From Bacteroidales bacterium (GTDB lineage: Bacteria > Bacteroidota > Bacteroidia > Bacteroidales > VadinHA17): 64,000 nucleotides of DNA. Location: positions 6,013 to 70,012 of the forward strand of contig JADGPU010000004.1 in the NCBI GenBank assembly GCA_017882305.1, written 5' to 3'. The stretch's first letter is position 1, and every line of letters starts with the position of its first letter. Under the pieces are notes generated by a model. The model was not told where the DNA came from. It saw only the letters and a program-made list of their open reading frames with translations, and did no database searches. This document shows positions 26,291 to 42,889 of this stretch, piece by piece. The translations under genes and the position numbers were made by a program.

Positions 26291-26298
26291 TATCTTTG
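26291..26298 (+). promoter_or_regulatory. -7 promoter box (TATCTTTG) of the his leader
   Basis: TAnnTTTG match 18 nt upstream of the leader ATG. TTTG candidates for the -33 element lie at 26265-26268 and 26275-26278, with non-ideal spacing. Confidence 0.45.
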
Positions 26299-26316
26299 CA
26301 TTTATAATTATAAGAA

Positions 26317-26373
26317 ATGTTCAACAAATCAACATTACACCATCATTTTCATCTTTGCTTTCAGGCGAGGTGA
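26317..26373 (+). CDS. His-rich leader peptide (18 aa)
   Basis: ATG TTC AAC AAA TCA ACA TTA CAC CAT CAT TTT CAT CTT TGC TTT CAG GCG AGG TGA = MFNKSTLHHHFHLCFQAR*. Four His codons fall within five positions. Confidence 0.75.
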   Translation: MFNKSTLHHHFHLCFQAR

Positions 26374-26405
26374 TAGTGATATGTATGGAAATAAAAATAT
26401 CATAA

Positions 26406-26436
26406 ACCCGTCTGAGCAGATCAGGCGGGTTTTTTT
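26406..26436 (+). terminator. Attenuator terminator upstream of hisG
   Basis: Stem ACCCGTCTGA (26406-26415) / TCAGGCGGGT (26421-26430), one G-U, followed by T7 (26430-26436). hisG ATG is at 26453. Confidence 0.8.
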
Positions 26437-26452
26437 ATTTAAAAAAAGTAAA

Positions 26453-27310
26453 ATGAGTGAACTGAAAATTGCGATTCAAAAGAGCGGACGACTTAGTGAA
26501 AATTCAAAAAAGCTACTGGAAGAATGTGGTATCAAATTCTCTAATGGCATCAGCGTCCTTAAAACAACTGCCAGAAATTTTCCCGTGGAGCTCCTCTTCC
26601 TTCGGGATGATGATATACCTCAGTATGTGGAGCAACAAGTTGCTGACATTGGTATTCTTGGCGAAAACATGGTATTTGAAAAGAATAAGGATGTAACTAT
26701 AATAGAACAGCTTGGGTTTGCACAGTGCAGACTGAGTCTTGCCATTCCAAAAGAAGAAAAATATGATGGTTTAGAATATTTCATGAATAAGAAAATTGCC
26801 ACAAGCTACCCGCATATCCTTACAGGTTTTCTTAAGAAAAATAAAATAACTGCTGAGATAGAAGAGATCAGTGGCAGCGTGGAAATTGCTCCCGGAATAG
26901 GTTTGGCTAATGCAGTATGTGATATTGTAAGCTCAGGCAGCACGCTGCTTACCAATGGTTTACATGAAGTTGAAACTATTCTTAAAAGCCAGGCAGTCAT
27001 TATCGGGAACAGAAACCTGACTCCTGAAAAACAAACGATTCTAAACAGCTTACTTTTCAGGATAAGGGCTGTCAAAAATGCGAAAGAGAATAAATATATA
27101 TTACTCAATACACCCCAATCGGCAATTGCGAAAATATGCAGTATTCTTCCGGGTATGAAAAGCCCTACTATCGTGCCGTTGGTAGAAAAAGGATGGTACA
27201 GTCTGCATTCTGTTGTAAAAGAGGACGAATTCTGGGAAAGGATTGATCAGCTCAAGGCTGCAGGTGCGGAAGGTATTCTGGTTATACCAATCGAGAAAAT
27301 GATACTCTAA
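26453..27310 (+). CDS. hisG: ATP phosphoribosyltransferase (long form)
   Basis: Start moved to MSELKIAIQKSGRL. The ORF-track start at 26276 reads through the leader and terminator. 285 aa. Confidence 0.9.
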   Translation: MSELKIAIQKSGRLSENSKKLLEECGIKFSNGISVLKTTARNFPVELLFLRDDDIPQYVEQQVADIGILGENMVFEKNKDVTIIEQLGFAQCRLSLAIPKEEKYDGLEYFMNKKIATSYPHILTGFLKKNKITAEIEEISGSVEIAPGIGLANAVCDIVSSGSTLLTNGLHEVETILKSQAVIIGNRNLTPEKQTILNSLLFRIRAVKNAKENKYILLNTPQSAIAKICSILPGMKSPTIVPLVEKGWYSLHSVVKEDEFWERIDQLKAAGAEGILVIPIEKMIL

Positions 27311-29623: not shown

Positions 29624-30708
29624 AGAAAGTACTTTTTATTGATAGGGATGGGACCATAATAGGCGAACCTGAAGATGAGCAGGTAGATAGTTTTGAGAAA
29701 CTGACTTTTCTTCCGGGAGCTATATCATGCTTATCCAGGATAGCTAATGAGACTGATTTTGAACTTGTTATGGTAACAAACCAGGATGGTCTGGGTACAG
29801 AGCCATTTCCTGAAAAAGCTTTCTGGCCGGTTCAGAACAAGATTCTCGAAATCCTTAAAGGTGAGGGCGTTACATTTGCTGAAATATTTATTGACAGAAC
29901 TATGCCATTGCAAAAGGCTCCGACCCGAAAACCCGGAATAGCAATGCTGGCTAAATACCTTGCTGACGGGGTCGATCTAAACTCATCATACGTTATCGGC
30001 GACAGGATGACGGATGTTGAGCTCGCAAAGAACCTGGGATGTAAAGCTATTTTAATCAGTAATGAAAGTTCCCGCGAAGCCGAATTGACAACTAAAGACT
30101 GGAACGATATCTATAAGTATCTGAAAAAGATACCCCGAATTGCAGAAGTGGAACGTAAAACCTCCGAAACTGATATACGGATCGCTCTCAATCTCGATGG
30201 ATCAGGTAAAAGCTCGATTAATACTGGAATTGGATTTTTTGATCATATGCTGGAACAGGTTGCTCGTCATGGAAACCTCGATCTTAATATACAGGTGAAT
30301 GGTGATCTTCACATTGATGAACACCATACTATTGAAGATGTGGCACTTGTGCTGGGTGATGCAGTTTTGAAGGCACTGGGAGGGAAAAAAGGGATCGAAA
30401 GATACAGCTTTGTATTGCCAATGGATGATTGCCTTGCACAGGTAGCTCTGGATTTTGGAGGCAGGCCATGGGTGGTCTGGGATGTAAAGTTCTTACGGGA
30501 GAAAGTCGGAGAAATTCCGACCGAATTGTTCTTCCATTTCTTTAAGTCATTCAGTGACAATGCAAAATGCAATCTGAATATCAACGCCGAAGGTGAAAAT
30601 GAACATCACAAGATCGAAGCAATCTTCAAAGCATTCGCGAAAGCCATAAAACTGGCTGTAAAGCAAACAGATAACTTTAACCTACCCACAACTAAAGGCA
30701 GTCTATGA
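29620..30708 (+). CDS. hisB: Bifunctional histidinol-phosphatase / imidazoleglycerol-phosphate dehydratase
   Basis: 362 aa. N-terminal HAD motif FIDRDGT. C-terminal IGPD motifs GFFDHML and DEHHTIED. Confidence 0.9.
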
Positions 30709-31283
30709 TAGCTATATTGAAATACAGTGCCGGAAATATAAAATCCGTACAGAATGCACTGACACGTCTGGGTTACAAAAGCATTATTACAGACAACCCA
30801 TCTGAGTTGTCAAATGCAGATAAAGTTATTTTCCCTGGTGTTGGAGAAGCCAGTTCTGCAATTTATTATCTTAAGGAAAGAGGATTGGATAAAACAATCA
30901 TCTCTCTGAAGCAACCAGTGCTTGGTATTTGTCTTGGTTTACAGCTAATGTGCCGTTTTTCTGAAGAAGGAGAAACAAAATGCCTCGGAATATTTGATAC
31001 CGATGTAAGATTATTCCCACCGGTTGATAAGATACCACATATGGGCTGGAATAATTGCCTGACGATGAAAGGAGACCTTTTCAAAAGCATAACTATTGAT
31101 GACGATCTCTATTATGTTCACAGTTATTATGCCGAAATTTCATCATTTACCTTAGCAACCTGCGACTATATCCTGCCATTCAGTGCAGCAATGCAAAAGG
31201 AAAATTTTTATGCCACACAGTTTCATCCGGAGAAATCTGCAGAAACCGGCGAAAAAATATTGAAAAACTTTCTGGCACTATGA
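30705..31283 (+). CDS. hisH: Imidazole glycerol phosphate synthase, glutaminase subunit
   Basis: 192 aa. GATase-1 with the GICLGLQ nucleophile elbow and QFHPEKS. Confidence 0.9.
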
Positions 31284-31993
31284 GAATCATTGTGGCAATG
31301 GATATTATAGGCGGAAAATGTGTCCGGCTTACCAGAGGAGATTTCAATACTAAGAAAGTTTATAATAAGGATCCTCTGGAGGTAGCTCTGCAGATCGAAG
31401 ATAATGGAATAAACTATCTGCATCTGGTCGATCTTGAAGGGGCTAAAAACAAACAGATAGAAAATATAAAGGTCCTGGAAAAGATTGCATGGAAGACAAA
31501 TTTAAAAATTGATTTTGGCGGCGGGTTAAGATCATATGATGATTTGATAACAGTATTTAATGCCGGGGCACGACAGGTCACCGCTGGAAGTATAGCTGTC
31601 ACTGACCCCCATTTATTCCTTGAATGGCTGATGAAACTGGGACAGGAAAAGCTGATTCTTGCGGCAGATTGCATCGACAGAAAAGTCTCGACCGGTGGAT
31701 GGTTGCAAAATTCCGACAAAGAGATAATGCGTTTTATTTCTGATTACCGGTCAAAAGGTGTGAAATATACAATATGTACTGATATTAAAAAAGATGGTAT
31801 GCTGAAGGGGCCGTCAACAGCACTTTATAAAGAGATCCTGAGTGCTGTAAAAATCAATCTTATTGCCAGCGGAGGAATTTCATCATTCAAAGATATTGAG
31901 GACGTTCAAGAAGCAGGATGTGAAGGGGCAATTATAGGAAAAGCAGTTTATGAGGGAAAAATGACTTTAAAAGAACTGGGGAAATTATGTTAA
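31280..31993 (+). CDS. hisA: ProFAR isomerase
   Basis: 237 aa. [14 protein letters not shown] opening. HisA/HisF fold, in operon order. Confidence 0.9.
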
Positions 31994-32739
31994 AAAGACG
32001 AATTATTCCTTGTCTCGACATTAAAGATGGAAGAACGGTTAAAGGAGTGAATTTTATCAACCTCATAGATGCAGGAGACCCTGTTGAACTGGCAAAAGTC
32101 TATGCAAAACAGGGTGCAGATGAACTTGTCTTCCTCGATATAACTGCGACAATCGAAAACAGGAAAGCTCTTGGTGCACTGGTTGAAAGGATTGCAGCGG
32201 AAATAAATATACCATTTACAGTCGGAGGTGGAATTGATACTGTTTACGATGTTTCAATTCTAATTAAAGCCGGAGCCGATAAAGTAACTGTAAATTCATC
32301 TGTAGTACGAAGGCCAGGACTAATATCTGAGATTGCAAGGCAATTTGGGAATCAATGTATTGTGGTTGCAATTGACACAAAACTTGTTGATCATGAATGG
32401 ATTGTTGTTGTAGATGGTGGCCGTACTATCACTGAATTAAAAACTATAGACTGGGCACGCAGTATAGAAGATCTTGGTGCAGGTGAAATCCTGCTGACCT
32501 CAATGAATAATGACGGAACAAAAACCGGGTTTTCTATAGATATTACCAGAGAGGTGAGCAGGAATGTAAATATCCCTGTCATCGCATCAGGCGGGGCCGG
32601 ATCTATGGAACACTTCCGGGATGTCTTTTTTAATACAAGTTGCAGTGCTGCACTTGCTGCAAGTATATTTCATTTCGGGGAGATAGATATCAGAGAACTG
32701 AAAAAGTATCTGAAACATAATGGTATTGCAATAAGATAA
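31987..32739 (+). CDS. hisF: Imidazole glycerol phosphate synthase, cyclase subunit
   Basis: 250 aa. [19 protein letters not shown] and [18 protein letters not shown]. Confidence 0.95.
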
Positions 32740-32750
32740 GAATCTTCTTT

Positions 32751-32810
32751 CTCTGTGGTTCTCTGAATTTCCTCTGTGATCCTCTAAACACGTTCTTATT
32801 TATTGTAACA
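32751..32810. repeat. CTCTGTG phased element, copy A3 (left arm and loop only)
   Basis: Units start at 32751, 32761, 32772, 32782 (spacing 10, 11, 10), followed by CACGTTCTTATTTATTGTAACA, homologous to the apical loop of A1/A2. No CACAGAG right arm is present. Confidence 0.7.
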
Positions 32811-32821
32811 TAATAAAATTT

Positions 32822-32894
32822 ACCCCCTTTCATTTTCCCCCAAGGGGGAAATGTTTTTACTCCTTCCCCCGTGGGGGAAGGTTGGGAAGGGGGT
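32822..32894 (+). repeat. C5/G5 three-stem palindromic element (possible structured RNA or terminator)
   Basis: Outer stem 32822-32830/32886-32894. Hairpin 32834-32840/32845-32851 is followed by TGTTTTT. Hairpin 32862-32869/32874-32881 has a CGTG loop. There are three C5 and three G5 tracts. Confidence 0.6.
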
Positions 32895-32928
32895 TATAAA
32901 ACTCTATAGAAAAGAAAAAAACAATATT

Positions 32929-33522
32929 ATGGAACAAATCGATTTTACAAAGGGTAACGGGCTGGTTCCGGTTGTTATTCAGGATAATAACACACTCCAG
33001 GTATTAATGGTAGGATATATGAATGAAGAGGCTTTAGAAAAAACCAGGAAAGAAAAAAAGGTGACTTTTTTCAGCAGGAGCAAAAACCGGCTCTGGACTA
33101 AAGGTGAAACCTCCGGGAATTATTTGCATATTAAAGAAGTTTTAATGGATTGTGATAACGATTCGATCCTTATTAAAGTTAACCCAGCCGGATCTGTCTG
33201 CCACACTGGAAGTACCTCCTGCTTTGGTGACGAGAGTGCAAAAGGGTTTATCTATGAATTAGAACACATTATAAACCAGCGTATTAAGAATAACACAAAA
33301 GAATCATATACAAACCAACTCTATAAGAAAGGAATTAACAAAGTTGCTCAGAAAGTCGGTGAAGAAGCCATTGAATTAATCATCGAATCCAAAGATACTA
33401 ACATCGACCTCTTCAGAAATGAGGCAGCAGACCTGCTTTATCATCTGATTATATTATTAAAAACAAAAGGTGTAAATCTGGAAAGTATTGAGGAGGTTCT
33501 GAAGGGAAGGCATAGAAAATAG
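32929..33522 (+). CDS. hisI: Bifunctional phosphoribosyl-AMP cyclohydrolase / phosphoribosyl-ATP pyrophosphatase
   Basis: Start moved to MEQIDFTKGNGLVPVVIQD. The ORF-track start at 32851 translates the C5/G5 hairpins. The HisI motif CHTGSTSCF is followed by a HisE helical domain. Confidence 0.9.
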   Translation: MEQIDFTKGNGLVPVVIQDNNTLQVLMVGYMNEEALEKTRKEKKVTFFSRSKNRLWTKGETSGNYLHIKEVLMDCDNDSILIKVNPAGSVCHTGSTSCFGDESAKGFIYELEHIINQRIKNNTKESYTNQLYKKGINKVAQKVGEEAIELIIESKDTNIDLFRNEAADLLYHLIILLKTKGVNLESIEEVLKGRHRK

Positions 33523-33584
33523 TTTTGCCCCCATCCCCCTAAATGGCGGCTAATATCATCAATTAAATTCAGGATGGTATTTTA

Positions 33585-33700
33585 AGATTGCTTCGCTTAG
33601 CTCGCAATGACTGTGCAAGTAAGGTTAGTTTAGTTTGGGAGTTGAACCAGAGCTGATAAAATACACTGTCATTGCGAGGAGTAAAGCGACGAAGCAATCT
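33585..33700. mobile_element. MITE-like palindromic element (about 31-37-nt imperfect terminal inverted repeats, 48-nt centre)
   Basis: AGATTGCTTCGCTTAGCTCGCAATGACTGTG (33585-33615) against CACTGTCATTGCGAGGAGTAAAGCGACGAAGCAATCT (33664-33700). The outer 11 nt and inner 13 nt of the arms are complementary (one mismatch). It has no coding capacity. Confidence 0.55.
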
Positions 33701-33793
33701 CATCGTTTAAGTCCGAATGATATAAAAAACTGTCAATTTTTAACCGAATTAACACTTTTTATAACTTTTTACTTGTTTTTTTAAAAATTCAAT

Positions 33794-33801
33794 TACTTTT
33801 G
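33794..33801 (+). promoter_or_regulatory. -7 promoter box (TACTTTTG) of the Phe/Tyr leader
   Basis: TAnnTTTG match 20 nt upstream of the leader ATG. Confidence 0.45.
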
Positions 33802-33821
33802 TAAGCAAATAACGAAACCAA

Positions 33822-33887
33822 ATGAATATTGTGTGCAAATATTTTATCTGCTTTTTCTACTTCTATTTTTATTTTAAAAACAGATAA
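33822..33887 (+). CDS. Phe/Tyr-rich leader peptide (21 aa)
   Basis: ATG AAT ATT GTG TGC AAA TAT TTT ATC TGC TTT TTC TAC TTC TAT TTT TAT TTT AAA AAC AGA TAA = MNIVCKYFICFFYFYFYFKNR*. It contains 6 Phe and 4 Tyr codons, eight of them consecutive. Confidence 0.75.
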   Translation: MNIVCKYFICFFYFYFYFKNR

Positions 33888-33927
33888 AGGGATTTTTGTA
33901 CACAGATAATTTAAATTATATGAAAGC

Positions 33928-33958
33928 AAGGGTCCCTCGGAGGGGCCCTTTCTGTTTT
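33928..33958 (+). terminator. Attenuator terminator upstream of pheA
   Basis: 10-bp stem AAGGGTCCCT (33928-33937) / AGGGGCCCTT (33941-33950), loop CGG, tail TCTGTTTT. pheA ATG is at 33975. Confidence 0.75.
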
Positions 33959-33974
33959 AATACTTTTTAAGATA

Positions 33975-34805
33975 ATGAAGATAGCAATACAGGGAGAGGC
34001 AGGGTCCTTTCATGAAGTTGCTGCAAGACAGTACTTCAGTTATGATGAAATCGAAATAGTACCCTGCTCAACTTTCGATCTGGAACTCAACACTCTTAAG
34101 GGTGGGGAGGTTGACTTTGCTGTAATGGCAATTGAAAATGCCAGATCAGGAAGTATTCTCTATAATTACACACTTATAAGGGAATCGGGAATGAAGATAC
34201 TGGGAGAACATAATCTTCGAATAAAGCAGAATCTTATGGCTTTACCTGATCAGAAGATAACGGACATCCATGAAATACGGACACATCCTATTGCTCTGGC
34301 CCAATGCATGACTTTCCTGAATCAGTTTCCCGGAATTACCCTTATTGAGAGTGACGATACTGCAGGAAGTGCAAGAGTGATAAGTGAAACTAAGGTAAAA
34401 GGGGTAGCTGCTATTGCGCCATCACATGCGGCAGAAATATATGGTCTCGAAATTCTCGCCTCAGGAATTGAGACTTATAAGCAAAACTATACGCGATTTC
34501 TGGTTGTAGGAAATGAGGAGAAAGGTAATACAAGAGGAAATAAGGTATCAATCTGTTTCTCCACCGGACATAAACCCGGGTCCCTGGCAAAAGTTCTGGT
34601 AAAGCTGGCAGAACTGGAAATTAATCTGTCAAAAATACAGTCTGTCCCGAGATTAAATGGAGAATGGGAATATATGTTCTATCTCGATCTGGAATTGAAT
34701 AAAAACACAAAATCTGATATAATTAAAAGGATTCTGGATAAATACACCAGCAACCTGGAGATACTTGGTGTTTATTTTAAAGGAGACATGCTATATGATA
34801 GTTAA
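33975..34805 (+). CDS. pheA: Prephenate dehydratase (PDT plus ACT domains, no chorismate mutase domain)
   Basis: 276 aa. IAIQGEAGSFHE opening, TRFLV motif, and a C-terminal ACT domain with ESRP-like SVPRL. Confidence 0.9.
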   Translation: MKIAIQGEAGSFHEVAARQYFSYDEIEIVPCSTFDLELNTLKGGEVDFAVMAIENARSGSILYNYTLIRESGMKILGEHNLRIKQNLMALPDQKITDIHEIRTHPIALAQCMTFLNQFPGITLIESDDTAGSARVISETKVKGVAAIAPSHAAEIYGLEILASGIETYKQNYTRFLVVGNEEKGNTRGNKVSICFSTGHKPGSLAKVLVKLAELEINLSKIQSVPRLNGEWEYMFYLDLELNKNTKSDIIKRILDKYTSNLEILGVYFKGDMLYDS

Positions 34806-35964
34806 ACCGGCTGACCGCACAGGAAATGTGCAGGAATATTATTTTTCTCAAAAACTTGCCCAGATAGACAGAATGCGTAGAGAGGGTTCTGATGTCATAA
34901 ATCTTGGTATCGGCAGCCCCGATCAGCCCCCTTCTGAAAATACTGTTTCGGCTTTGATTGATGAAGCCAGAAAGCCAACTTCACATGGTTATCAGAGCTA
35001 TTCAGGTATACCCGCTCTTAGGAAAGCATTCTCAGAATGGTACAATAAGTATTTTCATGTTAATCTTAATCCCGACAAAGAGATCCTGCTTTTAATGGGC
35101 AGTAAGGAGGGAATAATGCATATTAGTATGGCTTTCGTCAATCCTGGAGATGAAGTTCTAGTCCCTGATCCCGGGTACCCCACATATTCCTCAGTGACAA
35201 ACCTTGTTGGCGGAATAGTAAGAAAGTATGAACTTTCAGAAGAGAAGGGCTGGCTGCCCGATCTGAAATCCCTTGAACAGAGTGATCTGAGCAGAGTTAA
35301 ACTAATGTGGGTCAATTATCCGCATATGCCCACAGGAGTTCAAGGGTCGATGGATCTGTTTGAAAAGCTGGTTGCCTTTTCCAGAAAACATGAGATACTA
35401 CTTGTCAACGACAATCCTTACAGCTTCATATTAAATAACAAATATAACAGTCTCCTTGCTGCTGATGGAGCAAAAGAAACTTCTATGGAGCTTAATTCCC
35501 TAAGCAAATCACACAATATGGCTGGCTGGAGAATAGGGATGGTTGGCGGTCACAGTGATTATATTAAAACAATTCTGAAGGTAAAAAGCAATATGGATTC
35601 AGGAATGTTCCTGGCTATGCAGATGGCTGCAATTGAAGCACTTAATAATCAGAAATCATGGTACGACACTGTCAACAGTGTTTATTTCAGACGCAGGAAA
35701 ATTGTGGAAGAAATAATGGATTTACTTAAATGCCGGTATGACAAATCTCAGGTTGGTTTGTTTGTCTGGGGGCGTATTCAGGAGGATATTCCAGACTGTG
35801 AATCTTATATTGAGGAAATCTTAATGAAGACTTTTGTATTCATAACTCCCGGATTCATTTTCGGAAAGAACGGAGAACGTTATATACGCATTTCGCTCTG
35901 TGCTACGGAAGAAAAACTGAATGAAGCCAAAATGAGAATCACAAGTTTACTTTTTACCCGATAA
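34795..35964 (+). CDS. Class I/II PLP-dependent aminotransferase (aromatic/prephenate aminotransferase by context)
   Basis: Start taken at MIVKPADR (ATG 34795, 11-nt overlap with pheA) instead of 34765. PLP lysine in SLSKSHNMAGWRIG. The substrate is inferred only from the operon context. Confidence 0.75.
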   Translation: MIVKPADRTGNVQEYYFSQKLAQIDRMRREGSDVINLGIGSPDQPPSENTVSALIDEARKPTSHGYQSYSGIPALRKAFSEWYNKYFHVNLNPDKEILLLMGSKEGIMHISMAFVNPGDEVLVPDPGYPTYSSVTNLVGGIVRKYELSEEKGWLPDLKSLEQSDLSRVKLMWVNYPHMPTGVQGSMDLFEKLVAFSRKHEILLVNDNPYSFILNNKYNSLLAADGAKETSMELNSLSKSHNMAGWRIGMVGGHSDYIKTILKVKSNMDSGMFLAMQMAAIEALNNQKSWYDTVNSVYFRRRKIVEEIMDLLKCRYDKSQVGLFVWGRIQEDIPDCESYIEEILMKTFVFITPGFIFGKNGERYIRISLCATEEKLNEAKMRITSLLFTR

Positions 35965-36000
35965 CTTAATATCCTGATAACTTAATAACAACAAACAAAA

Positions 36001-36846
36001 ATGACAATTGCTGTAGTTGGAATAGGACTGATAGGAGGATCGTTAATGGTTGATCTCCGCAAACGTGGTTTTGCGGACAAAATAATCGGCATAGATACAA
36101 ATATACATCACCAGAACATAGCCCTCCTTTGTGGCCTGGTTGATGAAAATGATACTCTGGAAAATGCTGTTGAACAAAGCGATTTAATAATCCTCTCCAC
36201 ACCTGTTAATACAAATTGCATTATGTTACCAGGTATCCTCGACAGGATTGCTGGTACTACAAAAGTTGTTACAGATATGGGCTCAACAAAAGCCAGCATC
36301 GCAAAGGCTTCAAAAAACCATCCCGGCAGGGGAAGATATGTTGCAGTACATCCTATGGCTGGTACAGAATATTCTGGTCCTCTGGCAGCTATAGGCAGGC
36401 TTTTTGACTATAAGACTGCAATTATATGCGACAAGGAACTCAGTGATCCCGACGCTCTTTCCGTGGTTGAAAAAATGCTCGATTTGCTTAACATGCATAA
36501 AGTGTACATGAACTCGAGTGAGCATGATGTGCATGTTGCTTATATATCTCATATTTCACATATTACTTCCTTTTCACTTGCATTAAGCGTTCTTGAAAAG
36601 GAACAGGAAGAACAAAACATCCTTACCCTGGCTGGTGGCGGTTTTGAAAGTACCGTACGTCTCGCTAAAAGTAATGGAGAGACATGGGCTCCTATCTTCC
36701 TGGAAAATGCACAATATATCCTTGAGGTGATGGATACTTATATTGAAAAAATGAATTCATTCAGAAAAATGATTTCAGATAATGACATTAACGGTCTGAA
36801 AGCTTTAATGGAAGAAGCTAACAAGATCAGAAAGATATTAAATTAA
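36001..36846 (+). CDS. tyrA: Prephenate dehydrogenase
   Basis: 281 aa. VVGIGLIGGS Rossmann motif and HPMAGTE catalytic motif. Confidence 0.9.
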   Translation: MTIAVVGIGLIGGSLMVDLRKRGFADKIIGIDTNIHHQNIALLCGLVDENDTLENAVEQSDLIILSTPVNTNCIMLPGILDRIAGTTKVVTDMGSTKASIAKASKNHPGRGRYVAVHPMAGTEYSGPLAAIGRLFDYKTAIICDKELSDPDALSVVEKMLDLLNMHKVYMNSSEHDVHVAYISHISHITSFSLALSVLEKEQEEQNILTLAGGGFESTVRLAKSNGETWAPIFLENAQYILEVMDTYIEKMNSFRKMISDNDINGLKALMEEANKIRKILN

Positions 36847-36850
36847 GATA

Positions 36851-37966
36851 ATGGAATTAAAACTTAAGAATTCCCTGATTAAAGACTGGAGAGGTTATAA
36901 GGGCAGACCCTTTCTCATCTCCGGTCCATGCAGCGCCGAAACAGAGGAACAGGTGATGGAAACTGCTATACAATTAGCTCAGATAAAAGAGGTTAGTCTA
37001 TTTCGCGCTGGCATATGGAAACCCAGGACTCGTCCAAATTCTTTTGAAGGTGTGGGTACTGTAGGTTTAAAATGGCTAAGAAGAGTGAAAGAGGAAACCG
37101 GCCTGTTAGTCGGTACAGAAGTAGCGAATGAGAAACATGTCTATGAAGCTTTGAAATATGGCATTGACATGTTATGGATAGGTGCCAGAACATCTGTTAA
37201 TCCTTTCACGGTTCAGGAGATCTCCGATGCATTGAGTGGGGTAGATGTTATGGTCCTGGTCAAAAACCCGATTAATCCGGACATTGAGTTGTGGATAGGT
37301 GCAATAGAGCGCGTTGCCAGGGCAGGTATTACCCGGATAGGTGCAGTTCACCGGGGTTTCTCTTCCTACGAAAAGACATTGTACCGCAATCAGCCTAACT
37401 GGCAGTTGCCAATTGAACTTCGCAGACGAATGCCTGATTTACCAATAATTTGTGATCCAAGCCACATTGGAGGAGCCAGACAATTTCTTCATGAGATTTC
37501 GCAGAAGGCAATGGACCTCAACTTCGACGGGTTAATGCTTGAATCACATATCGACCCTTCAAAAGCTTTAAGCGACGCGGCTCAACAGCTTACTCCAAAT
37601 GATCTGAAAGAACTTTTAAGCAGGTTAATTCTTCGTAATCCAAGCACTTCTGATCCGAAATTGCTCGATGTACTCGGTGAATTAAGGCAACAGATCGATG
37701 TTTACGATGATCATCTTCTCGATCTGATGGAACAAAGAATGAAAGTTGCAGAAACTATCGGTCGTTATAAAAAGGAAAATAATATCACTATCTTGCAGAC
37801 AACCCGGTGGGATGAAATCATTAATAAAGTACTGGCAAAAGGTCATGCTAAAGGACTTAGCACAGAACTGATTGATACAATTTTCAAAGCGATTCACCAG
37901 GAGTCTATAAACCATCAGATGAAGGTCATGAATAATGGGGTGAAAAGCGGGCCTGACGAAAAATAA
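36851..37966 (+). CDS. Bifunctional DAHP synthase (type I-beta) with C-terminal chorismate mutase
   Basis: 371 aa. ISGPCSAE and CDPSH motifs of KDO8PS-like DAHPS. The last ~90 aa (LRQQIDVYDDHLLDLMEQRMKVAETIGRYK...) form an AroQ-type chorismate mutase domain. Confidence 0.85.
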   Translation: MELKLKNSLIKDWRGYKGRPFLISGPCSAETEEQVMETAIQLAQIKEVSLFRAGIWKPRTRPNSFEGVGTVGLKWLRRVKEETGLLVGTEVANEKHVYEALKYGIDMLWIGARTSVNPFTVQEISDALSGVDVMVLVKNPINPDIELWIGAIERVARAGITRIGAVHRGFSSYEKTLYRNQPNWQLPIELRRRMPDLPIICDPSHIGGARQFLHEISQKAMDLNFDGLMLESHIDPSKALSDAAQQLTPNDLKELLSRLILRNPSTSDPKLLDVLGELRQQIDVYDDHLLDLMEQRMKVAETIGRYKKENNITILQTTRWDEIINKVLAKGHAKGLSTELIDTIFKAIHQESINHQMKVMNNGVKSGPDEK

Positions 37967-37982
37967 AAATTAAAATGAACTT

Positions 37983-39233
37983 ATGGAAAGATATCTGGAA
38001 CCGTCCTCAATTAAAGGTACTATCAAAGCTCCGGCTTCAAAAAGCATGACACAACGGGCAATAGCTGCAGCGTTACTGGCTGACGGTCAAAGTATAATCC
38101 ATAATCCCTCGTATTGCGATGATTCATTGGCAGCAATGAGTATAGCAGTCGGATTGGGTGCCAGGGTTGAACCTCAGGTTAACCAACTTAAGATAAATGG
38201 GTCTGCAATTCTGAAAGAACCTAAGCTGAATTGTGGTGAATCGGGGCTGGCAATCCGTATGTTTTCCCCTATTGCTGCTTTATATCCTGCTGAAATTACG
38301 ATGGTTGGAGCGAATTCTCTTAAAAGAAGGCCAATGTTCATGATTGAAGATGCTTTAAATCAGCTTGGAGTGAAGTGTACAAGCTCTGGTGGATTTCTTC
38401 CTCTTACAATTGAGGGACCAATAGTCGGTGGAAATTGCGAAATTGACGGTTCGGTAAGCAGCCAGTTATTAACAGGATTGCTAATGGCTTTGCCTCTGGC
38501 TGCAAAAAACTCTGAAATCAAGGTCAATAACCTGAAAAGCAAACCATATATTGATATGACGATCCAGATTCTGAAGTCATTTGGTATATCTGTAGAGAAT
38601 CAAGATTATTGCCTGTTCAATATTCAGGGAAATCAAAAGTATACCCCTCATAGTTATACAGTGGAGGGTGACTGGAGCGGAGGAGCATTTCTCCTGGTTG
38701 CCGGTGCCATTAACGGTCAGCTGTGTGTCAAGGGACTTCGGAGAGACAGCATGCAAAGTGATATGGCAATAATTAACGCGCTGGAGAATGCCGGTGCACA
38801 TATTAAAGTGGGTGAAGATCAGATTGAGATTACCAAATCAGAATTAAAAGCGTTTGAATTTAATGCTACAGAATCACCGGATCTGTTCCCTCCACTTGTT
38901 GCACTAGCTTCCTATTGTGAAGGAATTTCAACAATCAAAGGTGTATCAAGATTAATATATAAGGAAAGTGACCGGGCCAAAGCTCTTAAGGAAGAGTTTG
39001 GCAAAATGAATGTTAAGATTGAAATTAGTGATGATATGATGTATGTGACCGGAGGAAGTCCACAGGGCGCCAGGGTTGAATCGCATGATGACCATCGCAT
39101 TGCAATGGCCATTGCTGTTACGTCACTTGGAGCTACAGGAAAAGTATCTATCAGAGACTCACAATGCGTCGCAAAATCATATCCCGGTTTCTTTGATGAT
39201 CTCAGACATCTTGGTGCTGTTGTTCATGAATGA
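37983..39233 (+). CDS. aroA: 3-phosphoshikimate 1-carboxyvinyltransferase (EPSP synthase)
   Basis: 416 aa. KAPASKSMTQRA and DHRIAMA motifs. Confidence 0.9.
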   Translation: MERYLEPSSIKGTIKAPASKSMTQRAIAAALLADGQSIIHNPSYCDDSLAAMSIAVGLGARVEPQVNQLKINGSAILKEPKLNCGESGLAIRMFSPIAALYPAEITMVGANSLKRRPMFMIEDALNQLGVKCTSSGGFLPLTIEGPIVGGNCEIDGSVSSQLLTGLLMALPLAAKNSEIKVNNLKSKPYIDMTIQILKSFGISVENQDYCLFNIQGNQKYTPHSYTVEGDWSGGAFLLVAGAINGQLCVKGLRRDSMQSDMAIINALENAGAHIKVGEDQIEITKSELKAFEFNATESPDLFPPLVALASYCEGISTIKGVSRLIYKESDRAKALKEEFGKMNVKIEISDDMMYVTGGSPQGARVESHDDHRIAMAIAVTSLGATGKVSIRDSQCVAKSYPGFFDDLRHLGAVVHE

Positions 39234-39337
39234 TTCCCGGGAAGGCTGAATTTTGATCGTTCCGATCATAAAAAGGGTTATTTTATTGAAATATTTAAAA
39301 AAAAGTTGATTTTTTATTGATATTTTAAATTTTTGAT

Positions 39338-39345
39338 TATTTTTG
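39338..39345 (+). promoter_or_regulatory. Candidate -7 promoter box (TATTTTTG) of the Trp leader
   Basis: TAnnTTTG match, but only 5 nt before the leader ATG. This would imply a leaderless or near-leaderless leader transcript, so confidence is low. Confidence 0.3.
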
Positions 39346-39350
39346 TCGCT

Positions 39351-39425
39351 ATGCAAACAAGGACTTTTTATATTTGGTCGTGGCGCAGCTCAACTGATTT
39401 AGCTGTGAAACAAGCCATTATATAA
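39351..39425 (+). CDS. Trp-containing leader peptide (24 aa)
   Basis: ATG CAA ACA AGG ACT TTT TAT ATT TGG TCG TGG CGC AGC TCA ACT GAT TTA GCT GTG AAA CAA GCC ATT ATA TAA = MQTRTFYIWSWRSSTDLAVKQAII*. Two TGG codons lie at 39375 and 39381. Confidence 0.75.
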   Translation: MQTRTFYIWSWRSSTDLAVKQAII

Positions 39426-39451
39426 CACTTATAAGATATTTATTTATAGAG

Positions 39452-39483
39452 GCATGCTGTTCACAGCGTGCTTTTTTTGTTTT
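39452..39483 (+). terminator. Attenuator terminator upstream of trpB2
   Basis: Stem GCATGCTG (39452-39459) / CAGCGTGC (39464-39471), loop TTCA, then TTTTTTTGTTTT (39472-39483). trpB2 ATG is at 39517. Confidence 0.8.
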
Positions 39484-39516
39484 AATATTTTTAACAAACA
39501 CTAATATTTAACAATT

Positions 39517-40878
39517 ATGGAAAAGATCAGAAAAATCATCTTAAGCGAAAGCGAAATGCCAAGGCAATGGTATAATATCATGGCAGATATGCCTAATAAA
39601 CCCATGCCGCCATTGAATCCGGCTACAAAACAACCAGTCGGCCCGGAGGACCTTGCTGCTGTTTTTCCCATGGAACTTATAAAACAGGAGGTATCAGCCG
39701 AGAGGTATATTGATATACCGGATGAGGTACTTGACCTCTACACTACCTATCGTCCCTCACCTATCTTCAGGGCACTTAGCCTTGAAAAAGCACTGGGCAC
39801 AAAAAGCAAGATCTACTACAAGTATGAAGGCGGTAATTATTCCGGCTCTCATAAAGCCAACACTGCAATTGCACAGGCATATTATAACAAAATGGAAGGC
39901 ATAAAAAGAATTACCACCGAGACCGGAGCCGGACAGTGGGGAAGCGCCATGAGTTTCGCCTGCCACCACTTCGGAATTGAACTACTGGTCTTCATGGTAA
40001 GGGTCAGCTATGAGCAGAAGCCAGGCCGCAAACTTTTGATGAACACCTATAATGCCAAGGTAGTAGCTTCACCAAGCACTATGACCGTGGCTGGAAGAAG
40101 AGTCCTTGAACTGGACCCCGACTCACCAGGAAGTCTGGGGATAGCAATTTCCGAAGCAATGGAAGTGGCGGTACAGGATCCTTATACTAAATACTCGCTC
40201 GGCAGCGTTCTCAACCATGTTATCCTTCACCAGACCATCATAGGACAGGAAGCACTTCTTCAGATGGAAAAAGCAGGCGATTACCCTGATGTTGTGATCG
40301 GCTGTTTCGGAGGAGGTTCAAACTTCTCCGGCATTGCATTTCCATTCCTTCGCGAAAAGTTGATTAACAAAAAAAATATCAGGCTTCTGACTATTGAACC
40401 TGCCTCATGCCCTAAACTTACAAAAGGAAAATTTATGTACGACTTCGGCGATTCGGCAGGAATGACCCCTCTCCTTCCTATGTACACACTCGGCCATAAT
40501 TTTATACCAGAAAAGATACATGCAGGTGGTTTACGTTACCACGGTGCAGGAGTTCTTGTAAGCCAGCTCCTCAAAGACGGATTTATTGAGGCAAGGGCAA
40601 AGATGCAGAGGGAATGTTTTGAAGCAGGTGTACTTTTCGCAAGGTCGGAAGGTATTCTTCCTGCTCCCGAATCGACATATGCTATTGCCGGCGCTCTTGA
40701 TGAGGCAAGAAAGGCCGACCTGGAAGGCGTCTCAAGGATAATACTCTTTAACCTGAGTGGCCATGGCCATTTCGATATTTCTGCTTATGAGAAGTACTTC
40801 GAAAACAATCTTCCGGATCATGAAATGACAACGGCAGAGGTTGAGGAGGCAATATCTAAAATTAATATTACTGTTTGA
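39517..40878 (+). CDS. trpB: TrpB2-type (TrpB-like) tryptophan synthase beta chain
   Basis: 453 aa, longer than TrpB1. N-terminal extension ...MPRQWYNIMADMP..., PLP lysine in GSHKANTA, GGGSNFSG loop. Confidence 0.85.
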   Translation: MEKIRKIILSESEMPRQWYNIMADMPNKPMPPLNPATKQPVGPEDLAAVFPMELIKQEVSAERYIDIPDEVLDLYTTYRPSPIFRALSLEKALGTKSKIYYKYEGGNYSGSHKANTAIAQAYYNKMEGIKRITTETGAGQWGSAMSFACHHFGIELLVFMVRVSYEQKPGRKLLMNTYNAKVVASPSTMTVAGRRVLELDPDSPGSLGIAISEAMEVAVQDPYTKYSLGSVLNHVILHQTIIGQEALLQMEKAGDYPDVVIGCFGGGSNFSGIAFPFLREKLINKKNIRLLTIEPASCPKLTKGKFMYDFGDSAGMTPLLPMYTLGHNFIPEKIHAGGLRYHGAGVLVSQLLKDGFIEARAKMQRECFEAGVLFARSEGILPAPESTYAIAGALDEARKADLEGVSRIILFNLSGHGHFDISAYEKYFENNLPDHEMTTAEVEEAISKINITV

Positions 40879-40879
40879 C

Positions 40880-40973
40880 CTCAGTGCTCTGTGTAACTCT
40901 GCGACTCCTCTGTACAACTCTGTGTAAGTTCTTAATAATTAGTTACACAGAGAAACACAGAGAAGACACAGAG
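40880..40973. repeat. CTCTGTG/CACAGAG phased inverted-repeat element, copy A2 (right arm shortened)
   Basis: Left units start at 40880, 40887, 40897, 40908, 40918. Right units start at 40946, 40956, 40967. It lies between the convergent trpB2 and NIPSNAP genes. Confidence 0.85.
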
Positions 40974-40982
40974 ATTTAATTA

Positions 40983-41780
40983 CTAAAAATCCGAATAAGA
41001 AGTCGGGTGCAAAAGAAAGGTATTATTTTTCGATACAGTATTCAAATACTCCACCATTCCCTTAAGTTTTATCCAATCGGGATGTTCCTGAAAAGCTTTC
41101 CAATGTGCGTCGTGAGATGCCATATTTTCGAAAGTTGTCATGTACATCAGATTAGGCTTATGACTGCCAACTAAAACCTCGGAATAGAATGCTGCATTGA
41201 ACTTCAGGCTTGAGAATAATTCTATCTCTCCACCCTGATTGAACATTTCAATCTTTTTTACAGCTTTGGCTTCAGTGGCACTTTCATAACTGCGTAATTC
41301 ATAAATCCTTTCAGCAGCAGGAGTAGAATATTTAGGAGCAACAAACTCAGGCATCATTATAAAAGCTTTCAAAAGAATACTTTCATATCTTTTATAGGGT
41401 GGATCATTATAAGCTGCATCAATAAAGGATTTTCCGGCATCTGTGTATACCTTATCTTTTTCAAGTAATTCGGGTAGTTGCATAAACTGATCGATCGTCT
41501 TGAAAGGGACAAACACATAGATTAATTTGCCAAAAGAGGTATCGGCCTCCACTGGCTTAAACACACCAATGATAGGAATACCAGCACGGTGAAGAGCTGG
41601 CAGATATGCATCCTTAAGATAAGTATCGACCCTTGCCTCCTGTGATTTATCAGCTATGCTGTAAATCTTTATCTCATAATACTGTTGTTTTGCAGTGGCT
41701 GCCTCGAAACTACTAATAACAACCGACATGAATATCAATAATGCCGGAAAGATCAGGTAAATAATTTTTGATTTTTTCAT
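40983..41780 (-). CDS. Secreted tandem NIPSNAP-domain protein
   Basis: 265 aa with a signal peptide. Two dimeric alpha-beta-barrel-like halves begin YYEIKIYSI and IYELRSYES. Confidence 0.6.
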   Translation of the reverse strand: MKKSKIIYLIFPALLIFMSVVISSFEAATAKQQYYEIKIYSIADKSQEARVDTYLKDAYLPALHRAGIPIIGVFKPVEADTSFGKLIYVFVPFKTIDQFMQLPELLEKDKVYTDAGKSFIDAAYNDPPYKRYESILLKAFIMMPEFVAPKYSTPAAERIYELRSYESATEAKAVKKIEMFNQGGEIELFSSLKFNAAFYSEVLVGSHKPNLMYMTTFENMASHDAHWKAFQEHPDWIKLKGMVEYLNTVSKNNTFLLHPTSYSDF

Positions 41781-41806
41781 TGTTAAAGTTTTTATTGTAT
41801 AGAATA

Positions 41807-42889
41807 TTAATATGTTTTTGAAAACTCCTTAAATATCTTATTTGCTTTTTCCGGAGTAAGTTCTAAACCTGATTGAACGTAGAATCTGTGATACAAAGTC
41901 ACCGATTGCCCATTCTCGATTTTATAACTCCTCTTTTCCTGTTTCGGATCATAAGAATTCTGTCCAAAATTATTTAGTGAAAAAAGACCATATCCACGGG
42001 CATGAGCATAGGCCGGGTAACCCGGGTTTTTAGGATTATCAAATAGACCCATGGTAATCTTTACGTTATTTTTAACTCCGGAAAGAATCACCCAGTCATT
42101 TCTGGTTCCCCATACGGCATCACCTTTTAATCCTCTACTTGAAGTATACATTCCTGTAACTCCCACATTATCTGTAGCTTTAACAGTTGTGGGATTGCCT
42201 TTATCATCCGTAAAGATCAGCGATTCATTTGAAGGCATTTCAAATGCCCTGTCAACCCTGATAGCAAACATACCTTCCTTGCTATCGTCTATCGTTACCG
42301 GACCATTACTTGCCGTTAATGTTGAGATGTGATCTATTGTGCGCGAATTCCTGTCACCAGAAAAAATGTATTGTGTTTTCTCAGTTAACAATATGTTCCC
42401 TTTGTTATCATCCCAGTTCAATATTACCTCAAGTATTCCTTTCTTCCCACTTACTGCTCTAATAATTGTCTTATGAACAATATGTCCATATGAATCTTTT
42501 TTATCAGCTGGTATGGCGGAAGAATTATTCCAAAAATCAAGTCCATTGACATTGCCGTAGTTAAACCAGATCCCAATATGGTGAAGGTGATCCATTCGTT
42601 CGCCTTTTCTTGGTTCAATCGGATAACCTCTTGTGATCACTGAACCGTCAGGAGCATTAACAGGAAACAGAAAGGGCTTTTCAATATTTTCAGGAAACTG
42701 ATAAGATGTAAAAAAACTCCCGTTAATAAAGATATCGACTTTATGTTTTTCATCAACTCTGACAAGCTTTACCCCCTTGTAATTGGATGATTGCGCGATT
42801 ACAATCATTCCTGAAAACAAAAAAACAAGAATACAGAATCCTCTTAATATCAAGATACTGCTTACTAATAAATCCTTTATTCTTCTCAC
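41807..42889 (-). CDS. PmoA-like / DUF6807-family secreted protein
   Basis: 360 aa with a signal anchor. DHLHHIGIWFNYGNVNGLDFWN block. I recall this family usually neighbours Gfo/Idh/MocA genes. Confidence 0.55.
   Translation of the reverse strand: MRRIKDLLVSSILILRGFCILVFLFSGMIVIAQSSNYKGVKLVRVDEKHKVDIFINGSFFTSYQFPENIEKPFLFPVNAPDGSVITRGYPIEPRKGERMDHLHHIGIWFNYGNVNGLDFWNNSSAIPADKKDSYGHIVHKTIIRAVSGKKGILEVILNWDDNKGNILLTEKTQYIFSGDRNSRTIDHISTLTASNGPVTIDDSKEGMFAIRVDRAFEMPSNESLIFTDDKGNPTTVKATDNVGVTGMYTSSRGLKGDAVWGTRNDWVILSGVKNNVKITMGLFDNPKNPGYPAYAHARGYGLFSLNNFGQNSYDPKQEKRSYKIENGQSVTLYHRFYVQSGLELTPEKANKIFKEFSKTY

Follow-up and report, generated by a model that had tools for sequence, protein, structure and literature searches.

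The region at 33794-33974 on the forward strand of the 64,000-nt stretch of Bacteroidales DNA analysed here (the window) is very probably a ribosome-mediated leader-peptide transcription attenuator of the classical three-hairpin type, a reading to which we assign a probability of about 0.85. It stands between hisIE and an operon for aromatic amino acid synthesis, and contains the components that define such attenuators: an ORF carrying codons for the end products of the operon, a terminator, an antiterminator and an anti-antiterminator. The original prediction proposed a translated Phe/Tyr leader and an intrinsic terminator that attenuate the pheA operon. Conservation of the ORF with its frame, start and stop, the pattern of substitutions within it, and recurrence of the arrangement across the phylum now support that proposal.

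The element begins with TACTTTTG (33794-33801), read from the sequence as a match to TAnnTTTG, which we take to be the -7 box of Bacteroidota promoters; transcription would then start at about 33806-33808. Twenty nucleotides 3' of the box begins the leader ORF (33822-33887), whose 21 codons encode MNIVCKYFICFFYFYFYFKNR and are followed by TAA. Phe or Tyr is specified by 10 of the 21 sense codons, eight of them consecutive (codons 11-18), which form the regulatory run FFYFYFYF (33852-33875). In a survey of all ATG-initiated ORFs of 8-40 aa on both strands of the window, this was the only one with at least six aromatic residues in any eight, and it has eight. The region 33800-33974 folds with a z score of -3.5; one of 200 shuffled sequences was equally stable. 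Downstream, on the same strand, Pfam models identify pheA (33975-34805, prephenate dehydratase plus ACT, ATG at 33975), a class I/II aminotransferase (34765-35964, with the start as given in the ORF list), tyrA (36001-36846, prephenate dehydrogenase), a DAHP synthase/chorismate mutase fusion (DAHPS/CM, 36851-37966) and aroA (37983-39233, EPSP synthase). Adjacent genes overlap or are separated by at most 36 nt, forming a single operon at 33975-39233. The original prediction had given the same promoter box and spacing, ORF boundaries, translation, codon counts, pheA start and gene content.

Searching one genome per species gave more than 550 relatives of the window's PheA. The best 80 of these are 70-94% identical to it, and all come from uncultured Bacteroidales of fens, peat, soils and sediments; 75 have enough upstream sequence to survey for a leader. 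The absence of an F/Y-rich ORF from related genomes had been named as grounds for abandoning the prediction, and we find such an ORF, 19-22 codons long and about 85 nt 5' of pheA, in 73 of the 75. Its consensus is MNIVYKYFISF(F/Y)YF(Y/F)FYFK(N/K)R. The ATG is invariant, the stop codon falls at the same position in 68 of the 73 distinct sequences, and the -7 box is found in 71 of 73, with a spacing to the leader ATG of precisely 20 nt in 58. A separate homology search with the PheA protein returned close relatives only (86-100% identity) and added no taxonomic breadth.

Within the run, substitutions follow the codon. The first codon position is a near-invariant T (minor allele 1.4%), the second varies between T and A only, that is, between Phe and Tyr (19.7%), and at the third the alternatives are T and C, a synonymous change (11%). 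Because the run is unpaired in all three of the alternative structures described below, selection on Phe and Tyr codons is the only source that this pattern can have. At codon 15, 34 sequences have F, 32 have Y and 4 have W. The four with Trp (TGG, giving YYFWFYF; loci L061, L062, L064 and L066) make up one small Bacteroidales clade in which the N-terminal part of the leader is altered to MNS(L/I)HKNFNL, and in which a change of GUAUAC to GUGUAC or GUGCAC in the downstream arm preserves the anti-antiterminator pairing.

The same region affects how pheA itself is annotated. Many database PheA entries (P0012, P0015, P0021 and others) are 287-303 aa long compared to 276 for the window protein, presumably because gene callers took an upstream in-frame start, so that the annotated pheA enters the terminator/antiterminator region. 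The attenuator gives rise to annotation errors, with pheA called 18-26 codons too long in many relatives.

We lean towards a leader that senses both Phe and Tyr. Tyr is kept at codon 13 in 61 of 73 relatives and at codon 17 in 70 of 73, and Tyr codons occur in all of the 146 leaders examined from across the phylum. This retention weighs against an attenuator that senses Phe only and merely tolerates Tyr codons as spacers, for example if charging of tRNA-Tyr never becomes limiting, as does the observation that the run switches almost exclusively between Phe and Tyr under a constant T at position 1, where neutral spacers would drift elsewhere. Sensing of Phe only would agree with the excess of Phe over Tyr codons (508 vs 410; 304 vs 203) and with the aroR leader of Corynebacterium glutamicum, which, according to the review PMC11802643, answers Phe and not Tyr; on balance we consider it unlikely.

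That an alternating Phe/Tyr run suits an operon making both amino acids, as the original prediction held, is borne out by the Pfam assignments, but the mixture is not tied to tyrA. The ratio Y/(F+Y) is 0.45 in the 93 operons with tyrA and 0.40 in the 53 without it, and we therefore rejected the idea that Tyr codons reflect the presence of tyrA in the operon. DAHPS/CM, by comparison, is present in 146 of 146 operons. In Flavobacterium swingsii the operon is pheA-aminotransferase-DAHPS/CM, without tyrA or aroA, and the leader still has Tyr and Trp codons. Since Tyr codons are equally frequent without tyrA, the mixed run tracks DAHPS/CM rather than tyrA. To judge from these operon contents, it accompanies control of the common pathway and of the chorismate mutase branch point.

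The intrinsic terminator (33928-33958) consists of a stem pairing 33928-33937 with 33941-33950 around the loop CGG, followed by the tail UCUGUUUU at 33951-33958. As originally described, the hairpin at 33928-33950 has 10 pairs and is followed by the tail TCTGTTTT; six of the pairs are G-C, and the loop is 3 nt long. Its energy is -15.9 to -16.5 kcal/mol, and three terminator-like sites occur in 800 nt where 0.3 would be expected. An equivalent hairpin and U-run are found in 72 of 74 aligned sequences, and the remaining two keep the hairpin with a weaker U-run. Terminator loops differ in length, which puts the 3' arm out of register in the MAFFT alignment; terminator covariation on that alignment was therefore uninformative and was set aside, and folding of individual sequences was used instead.

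The statement that no strong antiterminator could be found does not hold. One exists at 33888-33937, recovered both by inverted-repeat search (repeat I1) and by folding, and it pairs with the 5' arm of the terminator, not the 3' arm. Its basal stem joins AGGGAUUUUUGU (33888-33899), the 12 nt directly 3' of the leader stop codon, to GCAAGGGUCCCU (33926-33937), which contains the entire terminator 5' arm, in 12 bp of which four are G-U. The upper part has a 3x3 internal loop and a stem pairing 33903-33910 with 33915-33922. The energy of the 50-nt hairpin, -15.6 kcal/mol, is comparable to that of the terminator. The third structure is the anti-antiterminator, found in the unconstrained minimum free energy (MFE) fold at -19.4 kcal/mol, in which region 1 (33829-33850), lying within leader codons 3-10, pairs with region 2 (33881-33905) through the helices 33829-39/33895-905 and 33842-50/33881-89. 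Region 2 overlaps the antiterminator 5' arm and sequesters part of it. Anti-antiterminator and antiterminator are mutually exclusive, as are antiterminator and terminator.

Comparison of orthologous pheA upstream regions, the covariation check suggested with the original prediction, shows both new pairings above controls in which the partner is slid along the alignment. In the 74-sequence alignment, 92.5% of cells in the basal stem of the antiterminator are paired, compared to 36-57% with the partner slid by one to three columns. The anti-antiterminator is paired in 80%, compared to 37-62% in slid controls; as pair counts, alignment A1 gives 88% for the antiterminator, 80% for the anti-antiterminator and 36-62% for slid registers. 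Compensation is visible in the anti-antiterminator, where columns 28/95 hold a U-A pair in 55 sequences and a C-G pair in 13, and where a change of GUAUAC to ACACAA in the leader is matched by a change of GUAUAC to GUGUAC downstream. When the segment from leader stop codon to terminator loop was folded separately for 72 relatives, the antiterminator was the MFE structure in 71 (mean z -4.9), and the terminator 5' arm was 90% occupied compared to 38% after shuffling of the upstream part. In the exception, L007, a 1-nt deletion lengthens the leader ORF. Because the basal stem is so conserved within the order, true compensatory changes in it are few, and the covariation argument rests mainly on differences between clades.

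AAAGGG (33886-91) and CCCTTT (33946-51) occur where the original prediction placed them, as its best antiterminator candidate. We rejected their pairing, together with its 13-bp extension, as the main switch, since register-shifted controls pair almost equally well. The broader alternative, that the working antiterminator pairs 33877-33891 (AAAACAGAUAAAGGG) with the terminator 3' arm and U-tract (33946-33958), we judge very unlikely. Helices of 8 bp and 5 bp can be drawn in the window (repeats I6 and I10), and the 8-bp part appears in masked folds as an outer helix around the antiterminator. In the 74 sequences this pairing reaches 81.5%, but slid registers reach 68-75%, 73 of 500 shuffles reach the observed value, and covariation shows no excess; in essence, a run of A lies opposite a run of U. 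To form, the pairing would need to win against a local GC hairpin that nucleates earlier, and a ribosome stalled at the last codons would have 33877-33887 inside its footprint or adjacent to it.

The attenuator centred on the 33888-33937 antiterminator is proposed to work as follows. Transcription would begin a few nucleotides 3' of the -7 box, and the 21-codon leader would be translated. With no ribosome on the leader, regions 1 and 2 would pair and sequester the antiterminator arm, so that the terminator forms and transcription ends before pheA. With ample Phe-tRNA and Tyr-tRNA, the ribosome would reach the TAA at 33885, where its leading edge should cover the next 10-12 nt or so, the antiterminator 5' arm at 33888-33899, and the terminator would again form. 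When either Phe-tRNA or Tyr-tRNA is scarce, the ribosome would stall within the run (33852-33875), holding region 1 apart without reaching 33888. The free arm at 33888-33899 could then pair with 33926-33937 once that segment is transcribed, occupying the terminator 5' arm and allowing RNA polymerase to read into pheA-aminotransferase-tyrA-DAHPS/CM-aroA.

Folding with and without a ribosome mask, another check suggested from the start, makes the structures switch. The probability of the terminator is 0.93 both for a ribosome-free leader, whose ground state is the anti-antiterminator (the 1:2 helix) plus the terminator, and for a ribosome with its A site on the stop codon, whose footprint covers 33888-99 and blocks the antiterminator. 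With the A site at codons 7-11, the antiterminator is the MFE structure. In the equilibrium model, a ribosome stalled at codons 13-18 leaves the 33829-39/33895-905 helix free to re-form behind it, which restores termination; co-transcriptional kinetics or a queued second ribosome would be expected to prevent this re-pairing. The spacing of the leader fits attenuation. A stalled bacterial ribosome protects about 12 nt downstream of the A site in ribosome profiling, and 12 nt, three sense codons and the stop, separate the last Phe codon from the antiterminator arm, leaving the arm free when the ribosome stalls in the run and covered when it reaches the stop.

The alternating order of codons would put Phe and Tyr stall sites at the same distance, to within a few nucleotides, from the antiterminator arm and, in lineages with TGG in the run, a Trp stall site as well. 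It seems to us an even bet that the interleaved FYFYFYF run acts as a multi-input OR-gate sensor, in which shortage of any one aromatic amino acid would derepress the DAHPS/CM operon. A mixed Phe/Tyr(/Trp) run that tracks DAHPS/CM suggests that one attenuator integrates several end products. E. coli divides this task among three DAHP synthase isozymes and the TyrR and TrpR repressors, and one Bacteroidota leader would, if the proposal is right, do the job of them all.

RNA data come from the only two metatranscriptome runs, both from soil, in which related sequence turned up, represented by short Logan contigs at about 90-95% identity; they show that the leader occurs in RNA libraries. Contigs of relatives cover the equivalents of 33808-33986, 33846-33936 and 33861-33963, and one starts at 33808, a weak indication of a transcription start there. 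Depth is about 13 on the leader, 2-3 on the first 200 nt of pheA and zero beyond, in contigs that are fragmentary and may include DNA carry-over; the profile is compatible, if weakly, with short terminated transcripts.

The arrangement extends well beyond the order. At Flavobacterium loci, located from the published F. psychrophilum sequence, a leader rich in F, Y and W codons and a terminator precede pheA in 80 of 80 cases, for example MRQFNTFYNYFFYFFFGQKKGLVLCYVKK; the leader ORFs listed are 27-30 aa long. Here the terminator arm contains AAUCCC, the partner of a GGGAUUG element that lies 9-11 nt beyond the run (z -3.6), and at least half of the terminator arm is paired in 73 of the 80. A +12-nt ribosome mask cut into the antiterminator arm of these sequences and gave weak results, and it was abandoned. 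A +9 mask, which is closer to the 3' boundary of bacterial ribosome footprints, recovered the antiterminator helix.

A profile-based scan added 55 more distant Bacteroidota loci, with PheA 41-67% identical to the window protein and all but one in the range 41-53%. A leader was found in about 40 of the 55, several with the same FYFYFYF motif, in Saccharicrinis, Carboxylicivirga, Natronoflexus, Hymenobacter, Chitinophaga, Saprospiraceae, Lewinellaceae, Sphingobacterium, Pedobacter, Muribaculaceae, Barnesiella and Paludibacteraceae. No aromatic leader was found in Draconibacterium/Maribellus, one Rikenellaceae lineage, one MAG labelled 'Bacteroides sp.' or Winogradskyella. A few of the distant loci without a leader had too little upstream sequence. 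Eight loci (L203, L204, L225, L230, L234, L235, L237 and L242), from lineages that include Draconibacterium/Maribellus, the Rikenellaceae lineage and the 'Bacteroides sp.' MAG, had no aromatic leader within 400 nt 5' of pheA. In these lineages, either pheA is not the first gene of its operon or the attenuator has been lost or replaced.

In 39 distant leaders the element after the run was examined for pairing with the terminator 5' arm. It pairs with a mean z of -4.0, the arm being 74% occupied compared to 39% in shuffles, and only at L244 is the pairing unconvincing. The arm sequences differ by clade, as in GAGGUGGG/CCCACCUC, GCCGGGAU/GUCCCGGU and UCGAG/CUCGA. This co-variation between clades is the strongest structural evidence. 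The window element shares both features of these loci: an aromatic leader ORF directly before pheA, with aminotransferase and DAHPS/CM genes downstream, and, about 9-13 nt beyond the last aromatic codon, a G-rich element whose partner is the 5' arm of the terminator. It belongs to an uncurated, phylum-wide family of Bacteroidota aromatic leaders. The element is conserved across six orders and absent from Rfam, and a covariance model could therefore be built from the present alignments.

The least credible reading, that the ORF is an untranslated T-rich spacer and the hairpins form a protein- or ligand-responsive RNA switch or a his-operon terminator, appeals to the very AT-rich composition of the region and to the lack of a sequence-level initiation mark in a phylum without Shine-Dalgarno signals, and it is contradicted by an ATG, frame and stop conserved in three sampled sets down to about 41% PheA identity, by three-periodic, coding-type substitutions, by a conserved promoter box between hisIE and the leader with a separate strong hairpin 3' of hisIE, and by searches for Rfam riboswitches and T-boxes that gave no match at gathering score in the window or at E <= 10 in 30000-42000.

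Other structured elements lie nearby. A long near-perfect inverted repeat occupies 33585-33702, between hisIE and the leader promoter, and the region 33523-33720 folds at -63.9 kcal/mol (z -5.0). The repeat arm at 33665-33701 occurs once in the window and matches many soil metatranscriptome contigs with unrelated flanks, which suggests a dispersed repeat, REP- or MITE-like; it may also terminate the his operon. A strong hairpin at 40890-40975, after a PALP-family gene (39517-40878) and before a convergent ORF (40983-41780), is probably a bidirectional terminator; it also gave several meaningless sub-threshold matches to miRNA models on both strands. A second putative leader-peptide attenuator, at 26292-26453, precedes hisG (ATG 26454). 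It has a TAtcTTTG box, a His-rich leader ORF at 26317-26373 encoding MFNKSTLHHHFHLCFQAR, and a terminator, AAACCCGTCTGAGCAGATCAGGCGGGTTTTTTT, at about 26407-26436, with no Rfam match.

Taken with the genes it precedes, the pheA element offers a complete and testable model, from promoter through leader, anti-antiterminator, antiterminator and terminator, for control of entry into aromatic amino acid synthesis in Bacteroidota. The phylum is abundant in gut, soil and aquatic habitats and initiates translation without Shine-Dalgarno sequences, and to our knowledge its transcription-translation coupling is largely unstudied.

Members of this family have been noted before and never characterised. 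Vitreschak and colleagues reportedly predicted attenuators in Bacteroidetes/Chlorobi, in work said to have appeared in FEMS Microbiol Lett in 2004. Our literature search for a systematic description of Bacteroidota Phe/Tyr leaders gave only the supplement of Guerin et al. 2021 (ISME Commun, PMC9723704), discussed below, and a remark by Gurvich et al. 2011 that Bacteroides may use a pheL (PMC3082878).

No Rfam family scored above its gathering threshold in the window, and models for the Bacteroidetes Trp leader and for hisG and ilvE leaders gave no match at 33794-33974. The only hit at the element was a sub-threshold one to Phe_leader (RF01859), at 33838-33955, whose 26.8 bits (E 0.55) fall short of the gathering score of 55. 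The run of E. coli pheL is Phe-only, and that of the window is mixed, with Tyr conserved at codons 13 and 17. With its score below gathering, the window element is an analogue of pheL by mechanism and not a member of its family. Like enterobacterial pheL, it has a short ORF, a run of regulatory codons, 1:2, 2:3 and 3:4 hairpins and a terminator before pheA; unlike it, it has the run FFYFYFYF, where pheL uses Phe codons only (PMC3082878) and controls the single gene pheA (CM-PDT).

The C. glutamicum aroR leader (Neshat et al. 2014, via PMC11802643) precedes aroF and shares a mixed motif, Phe-Tyr-Phe, and ribosome-mediated attenuation of a DAHP synthase gene. It has only three regulatory codons and is unrelated in phylum and sequence, and PMC11802643 describes attenuation that responds in experiments to Phe limitation, with Tyr availability having no effect. 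The Bacteroidetes Trp leader RNA motif of Rfam and the hisG and ilvE leaders come from the same phylum, with the same promoter type and leader-plus-terminator design, and differ in their regulatory codons and operons. Within the window, the hisG leader MFNKSTLHHHFHLCFQAR resembles the published F. psychrophilum hisG leader MSLNQLHHHHFHICSQAKC (PMC9723704).

The nearest published counterpart is THC0290_N_0195, 5' of pheA-aspC3 in F. psychrophilum, annotated in PMC9723704 (Table S7/SI D9) as leader-peptide attenuation with the peptide MNTNNTFYSNNSFYFYWNIGRDCYMVI and no Rfam match. There the 5' region is high and pheA low in some conditions, and both are high in minimal medium; its authors report readthrough that depends on conditions (PMC9723704). 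As in the window, an ORF with tandem aromatic codons (there Phe, Tyr and Trp) precedes pheA-aminotransferase-DAHPS/CM, and an element just beyond the run, there GGGAUU, has its partner, AAUCCC, in the terminator 5' arm. The two PheA proteins are about 42% identical. The F. psychrophilum ORF is longer (27 aa) and extends through the antiterminator arm, whereas the window ORF stops just before it; the terminator sequence differs, the run includes a Trp codon, and the operon lacks tyrA and aroA. The original prediction set the window leader apart from the Phe-only pheL, and the run is indeed mixed, but it is less unusual than was implied because mixed aromatic pheA leaders, one of them published, are the norm in Bacteroidota. 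The window element is an ordinary, well-behaved member of that family.
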